A stretch of DNA of 24,417 bases from a virus. The translations under genes and the position numbers were made by a program. This document shows positions 13,783 through 20,388 of the stretch, piece after piece. Positions within the stretch are counted from its first letter, which is position 1; each line of letters opens with the position of its first letter. The DNA lies in UHGV virus genome UHGV-0187105; one strand, 5' to 3'. The notes beneath the pieces are model-generated. The model searched no databases. It was given only the letters and a program-made list of their open reading frames with translations, and was not told where the DNA came from.

Positions 13783-14535
13783 CTATCGTGTCACTTTTTG
13801 CAACTGTAACTCTGCGAATGCTTCTTCCTGCCAGCACTTTGTTACCAGTTTATCAATGACGTCTGCATATCCTTTGTACCACTGATAATCCGTCAGGTCT
13901 GGTACCAGCTTCTGGACATGATGCCGCGCCAGTGTGGTTGGTAAACGGCTAAACCGGTTTCCATTGCAACGCCCACAAATCTTATAAACAGGCGTGCCAT
14001 GAAGCCGGGTCCTTTTTTCATCCAGGACAATACCTTTACCCTTACACCCTCTGCACGCTGTGCTGACTTCTCCCTTACCATGACAATGCTGACACAGTTC
14101 CTTCACCCACTCTTCCTTGATAACAGATTCCCCGCTTCTGGAGTGTTTTACCACCTCGCGCAATACATCATGAAATCCAGTACCAGCACAATGCTCACAG
14201 CGAGCCTTACTTGCCGCAGACCTGGAATAATCAGCAAAGGCAAAATTCACAAGGTAAGGGATGATCTGTAACCGGATTTCTTCACTCAATTTGTTCAATG
14301 TCGGGTTATTCAGTGCCATCGCGTAATTGAGCAGACCTTCAATCGCAAACTGAGGGTCCTGAACGCCAACTTTTGCCAGGAATAAGGCAAACCCAAGCGG
14401 TGCTTTCGACTGCACCATCCCCTGCGCAGCCATTACATCCGTAATTGTTAAACCACCCGAGCCTGTCGCCGGTGCGTCATCGCTCAGTTTTGGAGATTTC
14501 GGGGAGTAATATTTCGGTAAGGCTTCAAGGTTCAT
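13783..14535 (-). CDS. Late-gene antiterminator Q (QuuQ-type, zinc-finger repeats)
   Basis: 250 aa with four CxxC-type motifs (CEHCAGTG, CQHCHGKG, CRGCKGKG, CGRCNG), immediately upstream of the promoter/terminator/lysis-cassette arrangement. I recall the family as the 250 aa Qin-prophage QuuQ type. Confidence 0.7.
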   Translation of the reverse strand: MNLEALPKYYSPKSPKLSDDAPATGSGGLTITDVMAAQGMVQSKAPLGFALFLAKVGVQDPQFAIEGLLNYAMALNNPTLNKLSEEIRLQIIPYLVNFAFADYSRSAASKARCEHCAGTGFHDVLREVVKHSRSGESVIKEEWVKELCQHCHGKGEVSTACRGCKGKGIVLDEKRTRLHGTPVYKICGRCNGNRFSRLPTTLARHHVQKLVPDLTDYQWYKGYADVIDKLVTKCWQEEAFAELQLQKVTR

Positions 14536-14548
14536 GCTCGTTCTCCAC

Positions 14549-15544
14549 TTACGCCAGTACGCCTATTGCCAGCGCACGATCGATAAAACGAAATATCAGC
14601 TCCAGCTGGGAACCATACTTCTCTTCAAATGCCACGGTATCCGCATGCAGCTCGTCGTGATGCTTTCTGCACAAAGGCAACACAAAGAGGTCATGCGCTT
14701 TTGTACCCATTCCACCCTGACCGTGGCCTATCAGGTGGTGGGGATCATCAGCAGGCTTTCCACAACATGCACACGGCTGCGTCTTAACCCAGCGCGTGTA
14801 CTTTTCATTAACCCAGCGGCGACGTTTGGGGCGTAACATAAAAGACTCCGGCGACTCCGGATCCACTTTCAGCGCCAGCACCTTTTTCGCCTTATCCTGG
14901 ATGATGCAGGTGGCAGGAACCGAAGGCACAAGGTCACTTTCCCGGGTAACAGACGGCACAACAGGCTTCGGTAATCTCAGTGCCTTACGGGCTGCACTTT
15001 CCGGTAAGGCATCCGCCAGATCATTACGAATCAGCCACCAGCACAGTTCCGGCATTGTCACAACATGACTGTCATCAAAACCGAGATCCCGACGCACAAC
15101 AGACAACACCCAGCGGGCACTGTTATCCGTTGCCATTGATTCCAGCCGTTCCGTGAACTGATCGCGCAGCTGGTTATCGCAGTGCCAGCACAAACGGATT
15201 GCGCCCGGAGCGTGTCGCATTGTTGTCATGTTCTCGCTGTGCCAGTCGGAATGAGGCCACTGGCAGCCTTTTTCACGAAGTAACCAGCTTTCAAGACATT
15301 CCACGCCACCAGCACGATGGATCACTGCCTCATTGCGGAACACGGCCCGAACGGCAGGATCATCCGCCAGCGGTTGTGATGCCGCCGGAACGGCACCACT
15401 GGCGAAAGATGAATAACGTTCCGGCTCAGGCTCCAGCAAGACACGCCCCTGCATAAACAAGGGCATCAGCTCTGAACCTGGTCTGAACAATACGATCCCC
15501 ATACGCGGGGCAATTTCAGGGGTCAGTAGTGCTCTCACGGTCAC
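14549..15544 (-). CDS. DUF968-like protein (YdfU-like) with C-terminal HNH-like Cys/His motif
   Basis: 331 aa; C-terminus PCACCGKPADDPHHLIGHGQGGMGTKAHDLFVLPLCRKHHDELH; position upstream of Q is typical for this family in lambdoid prophages (from memory). Track start is GTG. Confidence 0.6.
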   Translation of the reverse strand: MTVRALLTPEIAPRMGIVLFRPGSELMPLFMQGRVLLEPEPERYSSFASGAVPAASQPLADDPAVRAVFRNEAVIHRAGGVECLESWLLREKGCQWPHSDWHSENMTTMRHAPGAIRLCWHCDNQLRDQFTERLESMATDNSARWVLSVVRRDLGFDDSHVVTMPELCWWLIRNDLADALPESAARKALRLPKPVVPSVTRESDLVPSVPATCIIQDKAKKVLALKVDPESPESFMLRPKRRRWVNEKYTRWVKTQPCACCGKPADDPHHLIGHGQGGMGTKAHDLFVLPLCRKHHDELHADTVAFEEKYGSQLELIFRFIDRALAIGVLA

Positions 15545-15545
15545 C

Positions 15546-16376
15546 TCAATGAACGGTATCGAGCAGCTTTAACAGCTCAGGGAATCGGGATTCGAAGAAA
15601 TGCGGCTGCGTCTCGCGCGGATTTGCGGGACTGGTGATGTTCTTGCCGAACATGCAGCCTTTCGCCGTCAGCGACCAGAATTTTTTGATGTTGTTAATCG
15701 CGGTACGGCTGTATCGTTCGCGCTGTTCGACGATCCCCAGCTTCACCATCTGGTGATATGCCTGATTAGCCGTAAGGCGGATACCATACTGCTTCAGCAG
15801 TGCACTCAATGATAGCGTAGGGCGGCTTGAGCCATCGAGTGCATCAGCAGGAGCATCAATGGCATAGCGCGGTGCCAGATTCGGTAAGCCAACAGCCTCC
15901 TGGTGTTTCTGACAGGCACCAAGCACAGATGAGTTAGACAGGTTTAACTCCCGACGCATAAAGTCCAGCAGAATCACACCAGCCTGCATCTTGTCAGCAG
16001 CCTGTCCGGATAATTTTTCCGGTGCGCTGGTTACCATGTCGAAAGTACGGATCACCTTCAGATGGAATGACGGGCTGATCCACATTGCATAGGCATACAC
16101 CAGTTCTTTGCAGACATACGTCCCCTGGTTATTTCCGCCACGAATAACGTTAACTGGCTCTATATTGACCGAGTTGCAAATCTGCAACTCGCTTATTAAA
16201 CGTTCAGTTTGCTCATTGCGGAGCCAGAATGCAGGCTTATGCTTATCCAGAGAACCGGCAGCCCTGTGCAGATCGTTCAGGCTGTAACGACCATAAGCAT
16301 CACGACGAACTTCAATACCATCAATGACCATCAGATTATTCATACTTCGTTTCTCCTCTTGATCAGGCGGCTGCAC
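15546..16376 (-). CDS. KilA-N domain protein (antirepressor-like)
   Basis: N-terminal region NNLMVIDGIEVRRDAYGRYSLNDLHRAAG...KPAFWLRNEQTERLISEL fits the KilA-N pattern. Track start is GTG at 16376; an ATG at 16343 with GAGGAG about 9 nt upstream is more likely and removes the overlap with rusA. Confidence 0.6.
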   Translation of the reverse strand: MQPPDQEEKRSMNNLMVIDGIEVRRDAYGRYSLNDLHRAAGSLDKHKPAFWLRNEQTERLISELQICNSVNIEPVNVIRGGNNQGTYVCKELVYAYAMWISPSFHLKVIRTFDMVTSAPEKLSGQAADKMQAGVILLDFMRRELNLSNSSVLGACQKHQEAVGLPNLAPRYAIDAPADALDGSSRPTLSLSALLKQYGIRLTANQAYHQMVKLGIVEQRERYSRTAINNIKKFWSLTAKGCMFGKNITSPANPRETQPHFFESRFPELLKLLDTVH

Positions 16377-16752
16377 CCGCCGTTTTCTCGTACTTACTGA
16401 TAGTGATCTCGACCTTCCCTTTCGGGATAACCGGTCCCCACTCCACCAGCATTCTTTTCACCTGACTGTCGTCTTCCCACACACCCGCGTGGGTCAGGGC
16501 GTCAAACAGCGCCTTGTTATAGTTGTCCAGATCGCGGATCCGGTTATCCGGAGGAAACAACACGATCTCCACTGAAGCAGGTGCCGACGTTGGTTTCGGC
16601 AGACGACGTAACTGCTCAACTATTGCTGCACACGCCGCGCTCTGGAATTTGCGCCCCGCTGCGCTTATCAGGCTCTTACCAGCAAACGCCCCTTTGTTGG
16701 GGTGTCGCCAGTACGTGTTCACGCTGGGCGGAAAAGGCAGTATTAGCTTCAT
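16363..16752 (-). CDS. rusA: Holliday junction resolvase RusA
   Basis: 129 aa; motifs LPFPPSVNTYWRH and RIRDLDNYNKALFDALTHAGVWEDDSQV match my recollection of E. coli RusA ([36 protein letters not shown]). Confidence 0.85.
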   Translation of the reverse strand: MKLILPFPPSVNTYWRHPNKGAFAGKSLISAAGRKFQSAACAAIVEQLRRLPKPTSAPASVEIVLFPPDNRIRDLDNYNKALFDALTHAGVWEDDSQVKRMLVEWGPVIPKGKVEITISKYEKTAGAAA

Positions 16753-17075
16753 ACTTTCAGGCCCCTCTCATGTAACCAGTGGGCTGCACGCAGCCTGGCG
16801 TTTTCCTCACCGGCAAGCAGTGAGCGGATAATCCCGACCGCCTCGCTGTCGTCGTCCTTCACCGCGGTATGAAGAGTGATACCACGGGCCACGCCACGCT
16901 TTATCGTGATGACGCCTTTTTTCTCCAGTGCTCTAAGATGCTCCACCGCTGCATTCACTGAACGGTATCCCAGCATGGTTGCCACCTCCTGATTGGTTGG
17001 CGGGAAGCCACGTTCTTTCTGATAAGAAATCAGCATATCCAGCACCTGCTGCTGGCATTGAGTTAACGTCGTCAT
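16749..17075 (-). CDS. LexA-N-terminal-like winged-helix DNA-binding protein (no protease domain)
   Basis: 108 aa; QQQVLDMLISYQKERGFPPTNQEVATMLGYRSVNAAVEHLRALEKKGVI resembles the LexA N-terminal DNA-binding domain ([49 protein letters not shown], from memory). Confidence 0.55.
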   Translation of the reverse strand: MTTLTQCQQQVLDMLISYQKERGFPPTNQEVATMLGYRSVNAAVEHLRALEKKGVITIKRGVARGITLHTAVKDDDSEAVGIIRSLLAGEENARLRAAHWLHERGLKV

Positions 17076-17758
17076 GCCGCCATCTCCCTGACAAGTTTTT
17101 CTGCCTGCTGGCGAACCTGCGCCAGAAAGGCCTCACCACATGCCTCAAGTTCATCGCGCCCGATGTAGCTGATTGCCGGTCCCTTCCAGGTCTTGTCGAA
17201 AACAGCAATAGCACCAGCGAAGAACGCTCCTGTCGGCACCTGCTTCTCGTCCTTCGGGATAAACCAGGCAGGCAGTTCAAAACCAATACGCCCGCGAATA
17301 AAAGCAATATGGTCCGCATCTTCCGGCCACCACACTTCGCTGGTGGCAGCTTTGATCAGGAAAACATAGCGCCCGCCCTTATCACGCATGGCACTGGCAT
17401 GTTTCATGATGTAACGCATGCCGGTGATGTATTGCCCCTCATGCTGACTGGCGCGGCTGTATGGGGGATTACCAAAGGCAGCACCTTTAAGCTCCGCAAG
17501 ACGTTCTGACCAGTCATGCGCCAGCGCGTTGTCTTCCGCCGTGTAATACGCGGCACATTTGGCGTTATCACCGTCAGTGAACAGATCCAGAACAAACGGG
17601 CCAAACAGGGTGTTAATTCCCCAGAAAATGTTGTCCGGCGTGCGCCACTGATCGCCCACTTCCTTCAGTTCATGGGCTGGTTTGTTCCGCAGTTCCACCA
17701 GCGTCTGGCAATATTTATTACTCATTAAGCCCCCACGTAATTCCCTGACAGATACCAC
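17072..17758 (-). CDS. DNA N6-adenine methyltransferase (phage Dam-type)
   Basis: Contains the NPPY catalytic motif (AFGNPPYS). Track start is GTG at 17758; ATG at 17725 overlaps the upstream gene stop (TAATG) and is the likely start. Confidence 0.75.
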   Translation of the reverse strand: MVSVRELRGGLMSNKYCQTLVELRNKPAHELKEVGDQWRTPDNIFWGINTLFGPFVLDLFTDGDNAKCAAYYTAEDNALAHDWSERLAELKGAAFGNPPYSRASQHEGQYITGMRYIMKHASAMRDKGGRYVFLIKAATSEVWWPEDADHIAFIRGRIGFELPAWFIPKDEKQVPTGAFFAGAIAVFDKTWKGPAISYIGRDELEACGEAFLAQVRQQAEKLVREMAA

Positions 17759-18219
17759 TCTTCACCCGATGCAGCGCGCTTGCTGCTTTTCCGTAAGCAC
17801 CGCTCACGACGCGCCAGAAAATTGTTTCGTTCTGGCTGGGAGTGGCTTTCACGGAATGCCGCCATCCACACGGTTGCAGCACGACGGTATAAGCCCCTGG
17901 ACTCCAGTTCTTCCGCCTGGCGGGTCAGGCACAAAATCACACGGGGATCGTTAGTGCCGACATAGAAATTGCGCACAGGTCTGGTTTCACGAACTGGTTG
18001 TGGTTCCGGTTCCTGCGCTCTCTCAGTCAGGCGCGGGAAATGTCTGCGTGTATCTCCTTCACAACGGTGAGCCACACGCCCACTCTGACGTAACTTGCTT
18101 GCTGACTGCAGAACTCGCTGCCGTGAGTAACCTGCAAAAGCATCCGCAATGTCTCCGGAAGTACACCCCGGATGGGCTTCAATGAATTTCTGAACGTCAT
18201 TCAACAGACTCATGATCAC
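17725..18219 (-). CDS. Two-domain regulator: N-terminal winged-helix-like region plus C-terminal PerC-like motif
   Basis: C-terminal QAEELESRGLYRRAATVWMAAF resembles the conserved GL(W/Y)RRAA..W core I recall for PerC/Pch-family activators; the N-terminal half looks like a winged-helix domain. Likely start ATG at 18213. Confidence 0.4.
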   Translation of the reverse strand: MIMSLLNDVQKFIEAHPGCTSGDIADAFAGYSRQRVLQSASKLRQSGRVAHRCEGDTRRHFPRLTERAQEPEPQPVRETRPVRNFYVGTNDPRVILCLTRQAEELESRGLYRRAATVWMAAFRESHSQPERNNFLARRERCLRKSSKRAASGEEWYLSGNYVGA

Positions 18220-19157
18220 CCCCTGAATCCTGCCGGGATCTGGCTGTAGTCCACGTTGTCGTAACTGGCTTTGAAGTACGGGTCTTCGCGTTTTTCGGTG
18301 TACGTGCTGACGGACGGCGATAAGCGCAGGGAAAGCTCATCCCATTTTTCCCGCAGCTTCGACGGGCTGAGCACGTTACGGCACCAGAACGGATCGCGAC
18401 TGACGCGGCTGTACATCTCGCAGATTTGTTTATGAGTACGACCATCCTGCACACACATCAGGCGAATTTCGTTTGCCCAGGCTGTCCAGTTCGGTTCTTT
18501 GGGACGAACCACCTCGCCGTCACATTCGGCGGCCTGCTCGTACAGGGCGATGATTTTTTTCCAGAGCCACTGTGCGCAGGTCAAATCATCCTGCGTTCCC
18601 CACTGGCGCTTTTTAGGGCTGAATACAACCGCATCAGGATGGCGAGTTAAAAACTCCTGTTCAGCCGTCTGCGTGTCCGGTTGCGAAGCGTCCGGACGAG
18701 AAGTTTTTTTATCTGACGGATCATGTTTTGATTTTACTGACGGATCCCCGCCAGATTCTGACGGGTGAAAAACCGCTTTTTTGCCAGATTTCGACGCATC
18801 AAATTTTGACGGGTCAGATTTTGATGCGTCAGATTTTGACGGGTCAGAATCTGACAGTTGAGAAAATGCCGCTGCCTGAAGCTTCGCAACGTTAAGCTGA
18901 TAAACATTCGACGCATTGCGGTTACCCTGGCGACGCGCCTTACGCGTTAACCAGCCTTCTGCTTCCAGCCGTGCGATAGCCGTTCTGACGGTACTCATCC
19001 CCGCGCCAATCTGGCGGGCAATGGTTTCAATTGATGGCCAGCACACACCTTCGTCATTACTGAAATCAGCTAGGCGGGCCATAATTGCCACGCTGGATAA
19101 TTTCATGCCTGACGCAGCGCAACCATCCCATACATAGCCGGTTAATTTAGTGCTCAT
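18216..19157 (-). CDS. Replication initiator, O-like (N-terminal HTH; iteron array inside coding sequence)
   Basis: 313 aa at the position of lambda O, after the cro-proximal genes; N-terminal winged-helix-like domain; the central linker SDPSKSDASKSDPSKFDASKSGKK is encoded by tandem 15-bp DNA repeats, as the lambda ori iterons are inside O. Confidence 0.55.
   Translation of the reverse strand: MSTKLTGYVWDGCAASGMKLSSVAIMARLADFSNDEGVCWPSIETIARQIGAGMSTVRTAIARLEAEGWLTRKARRQGNRNASNVYQLNVAKLQAAAFSQLSDSDPSKSDASKSDPSKFDASKSGKKAVFHPSESGGDPSVKSKHDPSDKKTSRPDASQPDTQTAEQEFLTRHPDAVVFSPKKRQWGTQDDLTCAQWLWKKIIALYEQAAECDGEVVRPKEPNWTAWANEIRLMCVQDGRTHKQICEMYSRVSRDPFWCRNVLSPSKLREKWDELSLRLSPSVSTYTEKREDPYFKASYDNVDYSQIPAGFRG
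18713..18855. repeat. Iteron-like tandem direct repeats (candidate origin of replication)
   Basis: At least six degenerate 15-bp units of form TGAYGSRTCAGATTT (e.g. cgacgcatcaaattt, tgacgggtcagattt, tgatgcgtcagattt, tgacgggtcagaatc) in phase with the O-like reading frame; short T-rich tract at 18700-18711. Confidence 0.6.
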
Positions 19158-19166
19158 GACCGACCT

Positions 19167-19505
19167 CTATTTCCCTGAATTTACGACGAAACTGTTCGAG
19201 CGGGCTGAAGCACTCATGCTCATAGCCTTCGCGGAGGTAGATAACCCGTTGTGTTTCCGGTTCCCAACGAATGACTCTGACGGGCACTCCGTAGTGATCT
19301 TTGAACCAGCGGTTAACTTGTCGCAAAGGACTGTCTCCTTCTGCCGGTTGAAATCACCCACAGCCCACTCAGCAAAGCTGTGGGTTACAATTTCCCTGTC
19401 ACCTGGTACATTCACTGCATAGCAATACTCCACCTTCGCTTTTCCACCCGGTACAGGAAGTGCAATCAGTTGCGAGCGACGGTAGTGTGTTGTTAAACTG
19501 TTCAT
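19167..19505 (-). CDS. Hypothetical protein (112 aa)
   Basis: ATGA start/stop overlap with the upstream gene and 10-nt gap to the O-like gene suggest translational coupling in the early-right operon. No family recognised. Confidence 0.45.
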
Positions 19506-20167
19506 GCGTTAGTTTCTCCACAGTCACGACACGCCACGGCGCCCGGAGCTGCACACTCGCGGGCGTCATTACTTTCTGAAATGCAAAAAATTTTGTAGAC
19601 CAGTGCTGCATGCTCCTGCAGCTTCGAAATTGAGAGATACAGCTCGTCGTTAATTGCTGTCTTCTCATGCGGTTCCACCACACCGTCTTCGATTGCCGAA
19701 CGAATCTGTCTGGAATAACTGCCAATCTGTTCAATGACTTCCAGCAGGCGCTGGTTAATATCGGCGTTGTCCACATCCTCGACGTCAGGAAGAGACACAA
19801 AGACGCCATTTGCAGACTGCGCCACAGCGTCAGCAATGAAGTGAGTTCCACCAGCACGTTGCAAAATCATTGCCCATCCCAGCGGGAAAATCTGATCGCC
19901 ATCGGCACGAAGGCGGTTAAATAATGCGTTTTCTGTTACATCCAGCCAGTCAGCTGCTTCAGCGTAACCACCCGGCAACGCTGCGATAGTTTTTCTGACA
20001 GCTTTCACGTACCACTCAGGCTGTTTTTCTACTTTCCAGTGATGCTTACCCACGGTTAGCCTCATCGTTCTGTGGTTTCTGTTAATCGATTTATCCATTA
20101 GATTTTTCATAAAGCTCAGGTTTAAATGGCAACCGTCCGCAAGTTCTATATGCAGCTTCTGCTGCAC
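19502..20167 (-). CDS. Early regulatory protein, CII/YdaT-like by position (family uncertain)
   Basis: 221 aa ORF directly downstream of the cro-like gene; annotated start overlaps cro by 77 nt, so the true start may be an internal Met (20110 or 20098). Confidence 0.4.
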
Positions 20168-20291
20168 GTCCTTTTGGAATTAACTGGCCCGGACGGTTTC
20201 GCCACTGATAAACGGCTTCAGTTGTTATGCCGAAAAAAGCAGCAACTTTCTCAATACTGCCGAAGTAGCTTTCGATATCGTCAGTTGTCAT
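20091..20291 (-). CDS. Cro-like HTH repressor (Cro/YdaS-type)
   Basis: 66 aa; HTH segment VAAFFGITTEAVYQWRNR; divergent from the CI-type repressor across a 97-bp operator region; GGAGG 4 nt upstream of the ATG. Confidence 0.7.
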   Translation of the reverse strand: MTTDDIESYFGSIEKVAAFFGITTEAVYQWRNRPGQLIPKGRAAEAAYRTCGRLPFKPELYEKSNG

Positions 20292-20388
20292 ACGCCCTCC
20301 AAACTAAGTTTTATTAGATGCTAATTACAAATCTATCTTTGGTCAATAAAAACTAAGATTACTTAGCAATTCAAGAAATGGTGCTCCT
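20292..20388. promoter_or_regulatory. Divergent immunity control region (OR-like operators with candidate pR)
   Basis: Repeated ACTAAG-core motifs (aaactaagtttt at 20301-20312; palindrome CTAAG-atta-CTTAG at 20353-20366). Candidate rightward promoter on the minus strand: TTGACC (20346-20341) - 17 nt - TAGCAT (20323-20318). Confidence 0.55.

Follow-up and report, generated by a model that had tools for sequence, protein, structure and literature searches.

A probable initiator-binding iteron array within the O-like initiator gene of a lambdoid prophage sequence, UHGV-0187105

The virus genome sequence UHGV-0187105, analysed here as a single stretch of 24,417 nucleotides (the window), contains a gene for a replication initiator resembling the O protein of phage lambda, and near the middle of that gene lies a run of short repeats. 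The question raised by this locus is whether the repeats serve the DNA, as sites at which the initiator would bind to begin replication, or serve the protein, as a repetitive linker between two domains. A first-pass annotation had proposed an origin of the lambda kind. We consider it very probable, on the sequence evidence given below, that the array is the initiator-binding part of the prophage replication origin, placed inside the linker-coding part of the initiator gene. At this level the earlier proposal has held with respect to the position of the array, its AT-rich neighbour, the constraint acting on the DNA, the linkage to the N-terminal domain and the occurrence of subtype-specific arrays.

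The repeat array and its register

For comparison, relatives of the N-terminal domain were gathered from phage records and from one genome per species, giving a family set of 66 distinct full-length genes from related prophages of Enterobacterales, with N-domain identities of 69-100%. The repeat features of the window are as follows.

18783 to 18855, minus strand: iteron array of five contiguous 15-bp units, defined by repeat finding, motif scans, family-wide conservation and synonymous constraint
18843 to 18855, minus strand: array 13-mer GTCAGATTCTGAC
18828 to 18840, minus strand: array 13-mer GTCAAAATCTGAC
18813 to 18825, minus strand: array 13-mer ATCAAAATCTGAC
18798 to 18810, minus strand: array 13-mer GTCAAAATTTGAT
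18783 to 18795, minus strand: array 13-mer GTCGAAATCTGGC
18750 to 18762, minus strand: isolated sixth iteron GTCAGAATCTGGC, 33 bp from the array, its core CAGAATCTGG at least 90% conserved at each position over the 66 loci

Tandem Repeats Finder, the check suggested in the first-pass annotation, recovers a period-15 array at 18785-18848 (4.3 copies, 81% matches) as the sole strong array across the window, and on the same segment a period of 30 scores higher (88% matches). The core in which the repeat was first described, TGAYGSRTCA, has 27 strand-specific matches in the window when up to one mismatch is allowed, against 11.9 +/- 4.6 in shuffled sequence, and none of 100 shuffles reaches 27; its matches in the array region are at 18714, 18738, 18759, 18792, 18807, 18822 and 18837. 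With up to two mismatches, TCAAAATCTGAC is found 10 times in the window against 2.0 +/- 1.6 expected, and eight of the ten matches fall inside 18750-18855. The repeat is thus real and non-random, as had been claimed, but the claim of at least six copies at an exact 15-bp periodicity must be reduced, as only five units (18783-18855) are contiguous at that spacing. Further motif-bearing elements lie at 18750-18762, 18738-18747 and 18714-18723, with successive spacings of 33, 21 and 24 bp, and the last two of these, past the array, are half-site elements containing GATC. The span first assigned to the repeats, 18713-18855, encloses all of these elements, and their placement inside the O-like gene is correct, the array lying within the minus-strand open reading frame 18216-19157.

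On the coding strand the array reads tca gat tct gac ccg tca aaa tct gac gca tca aaa tct gac ccg tca aaa ttt gat gcg tcg aaa tct ggc. It takes up codons 101-125 of 313, in the stretch that joins the N- and C-terminal domains, and the encoded peptide is SDSDPSKSDASKSDPSKFDASKS, a series of SDxSK repeats at initiator residues 102-124.

Comparison across the 66 genes changes the register in which the repeat should be read. The invariant coding-strand DNA is TCA-[AG]A[AT]-T[CT]T-GA[CT], and the codon that follows is free (CCG, GCA, GCG, ACA, GGG, GTA, CGC and others). The register TGAYGSRTCA, that is TGAC-NN-GTCA, was dropped because the bases from TGAC to TCA vary among the relatives and TCA-RAWTY-TGA is fixed; the repeat unit originally given, TGAYGSRTCAGATTT, accordingly gives way to a different one. 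As aligned, the family consensus is a 13-bp palindrome, GTCA-RAWTY-TGAC, with two variable bases between copies, which together account for the 15-bp period. One relative with a 62%-identical N-domain (locus L199) has the same half-sites around an inverted spacer, GTCAGATTYTGAC, so that the palindrome is preserved, and because the inverted spacer is tolerated there we take the family consensus to be a full palindrome. Such symmetry suggests binding by a symmetric dimer. The recognition helix (STVRTAI) and wing (GNRNASN) of the N-domain are nearly invariant within the family, as are the half-sites. A reading of the repeats as LexA boxes was set aside, as the half-sites, judged by eye, do not match CTG-N10-CAG.

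The protein that would bind these sites can be divided as follows.

18216 to 19157, minus strand: O-like replication initiator of 313 aa (open reading frame, PHROG 391 match, named phage relatives)
18873 to 19157, minus strand: N-terminal winged-helix DNA-binding domain, residues 1-95, the presumed iteron binder (Pfam HTH_36)
18327 to 18665, minus strand: C-terminal domain homologous to the P-interacting C-terminal domain of lambda O (BLASTP)
18219 to 18245, minus strand: extreme C-terminal tail SQIPAGFRG, similar to the final nine residues of E. coli DnaT

Over its full length (residues 1-313) the protein matches PHROG 391, 'replication initiation O-like', with an E value of 7e-135, and its gene is 98-99.6% identical to genes of the Shigella phages SfIV and SfII and of several E. 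coli phages. The annotations there are either replication protein O or primosomal protein. The Pfam family HTH_36 is matched by residues 23-70 (E 4e-11, 42.9 bits, the cut-off being 25); weaker matches of the N-domain are to other winged-helix families in Pfam (GntR, MarR, DnaD_N and RepC-N), and a sequence search of the PDB gave only weak MarR-type winged-helix matches. Residues 131-277 align with residues 139-270 of lambda O at 35% identity over 149 aligned positions (BLASTP, E 2e-25).

Constraint on the DNA and linkage to the N-terminal domain

In the 66 genes, the motif has 293 matches in the 270-nt linker windows (16.4 per kb) against 8 in the other 411 kb, counted on both strands (0.019 per kb). 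Copy number ranges from 2 to 8 in 65 of the genes, and one gene has no copy that reaches the threshold. A range of this kind, together with a period that is a multiple of three, a single reading frame for all units in the close family and a 30-bp super-period that suggests recent duplication, might be expected if the array were simply a low-complexity flexible linker of SDxSK units, expanded by replication slippage and having no function as DNA. The codons used within the units argue strongly otherwise. Units were defined at the peptide level for this count, and the same residue at conserved columns of the N-domain served as the control.

First serine of the unit: TCA in 341 of 368 (93%); at conserved N-domain serine columns, TCA in 27 of 323
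Lysine of the unit: AAA in 233 of 234 (99.6%); at conserved N-domain lysine columns, AAA in 121 of 197
Second serine of the unit: TCT or TCC in 254 of 254, the codon of the first serine never being used

Synonymous positions are therefore near invariant across genera, and the same residues elsewhere in the gene use mixed codons. The two serines of one unit keep different codons, each conserved across genera, a pattern which selection on the peptide cannot explain. The fifth codon of the unit is free to encode A, G, P, T, V or R, and the DNA half-sites are fixed. Where non-synonymous changes do occur they stay inside the DNA consensus: the lysine codon AAA changes to GAA, AAT or GAT and the serine codon TCT to TTT, CCT or TAT, by which the degenerate R-A-W is kept, as is the T that ends the second serine codon. 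In Stx2_KH16-043, whose N-domain is 64% identical, one copy of the motif is in another reading frame, 32 bp from the preceding copy, and is read as LTLQNLT. Judged from these counts, the repeat is conserved as DNA rather than as protein, and we infer that the SDxSK peptide is a flexible linker tolerant of change, its sequence being set by the DNA sites and not the reverse. Expansion of a linker by slippage, with no role for the DNA, is highly improbable.

Sister subtypes provide a further argument against a purely peptide repeat. Other initiators with an HTH_36 domain (those of RAH1, SfV, phi24B and ZF40) each have an array of their own at the same position in the gene, with the following spacings between successive copies.

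RAH1: 23, 22 and 24 bp
phi24B: 21 and 24 bp
SfV: 24 and 42 bp
ZF40: 66 bp (44-nt units)

Periods such as the 22-24 bp seen among these sister subtypes include values that are not multiples of three, and arrays of that kind are not peptide repeats.

The array also travels with the N-domain. When viral contigs were searched by the motif pair alone, 120 were returned, all with the N-domain family upstream of the array; in 119 of them the N-domain is 19-70 nt upstream on the same strand, and the remaining contig is L199, the relative with the inverted spacer. Natural recombinants serve as a test of this linkage. The N-domain, the array and the conserved block that follows it (described below) are joined to a different C-domain in Citrobacter phage phiNP and in at least 33 of the 66 loci, while mEp460_4F5 keeps the C-domain (97% nucleotide identity) and has an unrelated N-domain with a different array of 23-24-bp period. 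The recombination junctions of both types of swap fall at about 18690-18700, just past the AT-rich block, which indicates that N-domain, iterons and block form one unit of exchange.

A few members of the wider collection are evidently damaged or misplaced. In two E. coli chromosomes (L065 and L085, 1501-2870) residues 1-79 of the N-domain are present at 99% identity and run on in frame into terminase-like sequence, presumably by the sort of deletion fusion found in defective e14-type prophages (ymfN). In Rouxiella badensis (L060, gene from 1501) the initiator is cut at 143 codons by a frame change in the GATC block (ESGGIR*), and this gene is probably a pseudogene. Initiator copies that are 82-89% identical also appear in three non-enterobacterial assemblies, of Vagococcus sp. 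(L022), Chryseobacterium sp. (L046) and Martelella alba (L051), and are most likely contaminating contigs.

The adjacent AT-rich segment and comparison with known origins

Downstream of the tandem units, and including the isolated sixth iteron, is a second region in which the DNA is better conserved than the protein.

18704 to 18770, minus strand: conserved DNA block, 66-locus consensus TTTnACCCgnCAGAATCTGGnGGgGATCCGTcAGTAAatTCAAaacaaGAtCCAtcAg..Aaaaaa
18743 to 18746, no strand assigned: first GATC (Dam site), within GGGGATCCGTCAG, found at the same place in all 66 related genes
18719 to 18722, no strand assigned: second GATC (Dam site), within ATGATCCGTCAG, present in 57 of 66 related genes
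18699 to 18740, no strand assigned: AT-rich segment, the GC minimum within the gene and a candidate DNA-unwinding element

At codons for conserved amino acids, third positions carry 1.63 bits of information in the block and 0.65 bits in the N-domain (Mann-Whitney p 9e-6). Nucleotide identity between pairs is higher in the block than in the N-domain (84% versus 72%), and amino-acid identity is lower (73% versus 81%). A strongly conserved G+C-rich clamp with GATC separates the iterons from the AT-rich trough. The segment 18699-18740 has a GC fraction of 0.275, among the lowest 1% of 40-nt windows in the 24.4-kb sequence, and the least stable 30-step duplex is at 18706-18736. In 56 of the 66 relatives the AT-richest 40 nt of the gene begin 1-8 nt past the first GATC; the mean GC fraction of the trough is 0.27 +/- 0.03, with flanking segments at 0.63-0.64. 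By analogy with lambda, this segment sits where an unwinding element would be expected, and we regard it as a candidate for that element. In SfV (L012, 1811-1851) and RAH1 (L013, 1808-1848) the sequence GAACCAGTCA occurs three times, at 17- and 12-bp spacing, downstream of the iteron arrays. It encodes an EPV.EP motif common to the SfV, phi24B, SF6, RAH1 and ZF40 initiators, and could correspond to the conserved block of the present family.

The resemblance to the lambda origin is considerable. In both, repeats of dyad symmetry lie inside the initiator gene between the N- and C-domains and are followed by an AT-rich stretch of about 40 bp, and in both the gene belongs to the early rightward operon and comes after cro and cII-like genes. 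The lambda iterons are at O codons 117-145, those of the present array at codons 101-125. The sites have a similar layout of half-site, A-rich 5-nt spacer and half-site, the lambda iteron being TCCCTC-AAAAC-GAGGGA, and the C-terminal domains are homologous, as noted. There are also differences. The N-domain here is Pfam HTH_36 rather than lambda-O-N; sites of 13 bp recur here every 15 bp exactly, in contrast to lambda with its 18-19-bp sites at 20-24 bp; lambda has four copies, the present gene five in tandem and one set apart; the AT-rich part is flanked by GATC sites conserved in the family; and a gene for a PerC-like protein of 164 aa, rather than a P gene, follows the initiator gene. Of the features of a lambda-type origin, then, the sequence has the iterons inside the gene, at least four dyad copies, the AT-rich neighbour and the C-domain homology, and lacks the N-domain family and an adjacent P-type loader.

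Repeat arrays in lambda O, in P22 gene 18 and in gene 18 of phage L have been treated as origins (PMC8022706). The gene 18 proteins are lambdoid initiators related only distantly, and a separate repeat family lies in the coding region of each (PMC8022706); in this respect they resemble the present case. They differ in the repeats themselves (six copies of the 11-bp TGTCCAACGGA in L, four copies of about 20 bp in P22) and in having a DnaB-type helicase, gene 12, beside the initiator, which is absent here. The Shiga-toxin phages, for which origins with six iterons have been studied, are lambdoid prophages of E. coli whose iteron number inside O varies from phage to phage. Their replication regions are reportedly highly similar to that of lambda (PMC7466680), and the present module differs from them in its N-domain and iterons.

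Iteron origins are also familiar from plasmids of the RepA, pi and RepE families, in which a winged-helix initiator binds an array of short repeats beside an AT-rich unwinding element. The iterons of plasmids are as a rule 17-22 bp long, spaced in phase at roughly two helical turns, located outside the rep gene and accompanied by DnaA boxes. The present array differs from that type in its 15-bp period, in having its sites inside the gene and in the lack of a DnaA box in the window.

Conservation of the sites as DNA and their linkage to the N-domain show a binding site and not its purpose, and the array might be a cis-acting protein-binding site other than an origin, used by the initiator in autoregulation of the early operon, in copy or exclusion control, or by some other linked binder. 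One candidate for such a binder is the DUF4222 protein, whose gene overlaps the start codon of the initiator gene and accompanies the N-domain in 59 of the 66 loci. The six loci without a DUF4222 match nevertheless retain 3-6 iterons. There is, moreover, a conserved AT-rich trough right after the sites, which an operator would not need; the position of the array copies that of the lambda, P22 and L origins; and apart from the initiator the window has no recognisable replication protein, which leads one to expect an origin nearby. We therefore judge a binding site with no part in the origin to be distinctly unlikely.

Mechanism, gene neighbourhood and significance

If the array is the initiator-binding part of an origin, as we favour, dimers of the N-terminal winged-helix domain would bind each palindrome, and the 15-bp packing would set neighbouring dimers about 154 degrees apart around the helix in a nucleoprotein complex resembling the lambda O-some. 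This complex, helped by transcription from the upstream early promoter, would melt the AT-rich segment 18699-18740, after which the C-terminal domain and the DnaT-like tail would recruit the host helicase. The last is the weakest step, and the host helicase is proposed because the window has no recognisable gene for a phage helicase or loader.

The tail SQIPAGFRG is identical to the SQIPPGFRG of DnaT at eight of nine positions, and both are C-terminal. Tails of the GFR[GS] type recur on initiators with different C-domains. The likeness to E. coli DnaT is confined to these last nine residues, with none detectable outside the tail, and homology of the lambda-O-like C-domain to the C-terminal domain of DnaT was rejected (hhalign probability 0.15%). 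The tail may be a short motif for interaction with the host, and its match to DnaT is probably the reason why these phage genes are labelled 'primosomal protein I'. A study of DnaT (PMC13377028) does not establish a role for the C-terminal tail in that protein.

Several observations weigh against a lambda-type origin at this site. No P-type loader, DnaB, DnaC, helicase or primase gene is recognisable in the window, the early operon occupying 13783-20291 on the minus strand, and a lambda P gene follows the initiator gene in only 1 of 66 relatives. No DnaA box (TTWTNCACA) is found anywhere in the window. The N-domain shows no homology to lambda O by BLASTP, and a Pfam scan returned no lambda-O family at E <= 0.01; of the earlier description of the protein as lambda O-like, with the iterons bound by the O N-terminal domain, the C-domain part is sustained, and the N-domain must be reassigned to HTH_36. 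The 15-bp period is far tighter than the 20-24 bp of lambda and is out of helical phase. All 293 units in the close family share one reading frame, and some selection at the peptide level is possible, although a single frame is what would be expected of units arising by in-frame tandem duplication within a gene.

The predicted folding of the palindromic array also counts on this side, being far stronger than that of shuffled sequences both as RNA (z -5.7) and as single-stranded DNA (z -4.8). It would suit an array that acts through nucleic-acid structure, either as an mRNA hairpin controlling translation of the initiator or as single-stranded-DNA hairpins forming a signal for primosome assembly. 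Any array of palindromes would score in this way, however, and copy number, hence any given hairpin, is not conserved. The conserved entities are short motifs in a fixed register rather than pairing partners, and the array sequence changes with the N-domain subtype, which fits protein-DNA specificity. A role through folding is, to us, scarcely credible.

A more far-reaching version of the origin reading can be put forward, in which the module runs without any phage helicase or loader, the DnaT-like tail feeding into the host primosome or DnaB-DnaC; unwinding of the invariant AT-rich block flanked by GATC sites would be sensitive to Dam methylation; and the 15-bp packing would produce a continuous filament, unlike the lambda O-some. 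We offer this as speculation that is rather unlikely to be correct as it stands.

The gene order around the initiator is cro, a cII-like gene (CP76), a small open reading frame, the initiator, the PerC-like 164-aa gene, Dam, a LexA DNA-binding-domain gene (LexA-DBD), RusA, KilA-N, DUF968 and Q. The position of lambda P is thus held by the 164-aa protein, whose C-terminal half is PerC/ANR-like (yfdN-like). In 31 of 66 relatives, a homologue of Dam methylase is encoded no more than about 850 bp downstream of the initiator gene. One further feature bears on transcription of the region.

20318 to 20346, minus strand: pR-like promoter upstream of cro (consensus match only, 9 of 12 positions)

Transcription from this putative promoter would cross the initiator gene and the array. 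At the other edge of the initiator gene, the open reading frames 19147-19326 and 19167-19505, both on the minus strand, overlap by 160 nt in different frames, each with a strong family match (DUF4222, E 9e-19; phrog_1170, E 4e-70). Annotation of the pair differs between sources, PGAP giving the DUF4222 frame and the SfIV record the 112-aa open reading frame.

At a coverage of at least 80%, the initiator gene is found in 1,576 of 5,426 complete E. coli genomes, and serotype-converting Shigella phages carry it as well. Matches in plasmid records were considered as independent proof of a replicon and discarded as uninformative, since they are chromosome-sized records or excised defective prophages such as e14-like circles. 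Two such records, L096 (OR902851.1) and L097 (NZ_CP148542.1), submitted as E. coli plasmids of 15-16 kb, prove to be circular fragments of defective prophages; of the two, one is e14-like (icd, mcrA, pin, tfaE) and the other is a lambdoid early and lysis region, and neither has a typed plasmid replicon.

In RefSeq the gene is labelled only 'helix-turn-helix domain-containing protein', and the SfIV genome paper mentions no origin. We found no description in the literature of origins or iterons in SfIV, SfII or SfV, or of the motif sequence, which does not appear in a phage context in the searchable literature. Iterons inside an initiator gene are already textbook knowledge for lambda, and none of the present findings overturns that paradigm; it is this particular origin for which no description was found. 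Calling the origin from sequence, with a defined motif, boundaries and a candidate unwinding element, opens the replication module of a large group of prophages to annotation and to testing. The locus also supplies a clean example of dual coding, in which a cis-acting DNA element appears to dictate the sequence of a protein linker and conservation is stronger in the DNA than in the encoded peptide.

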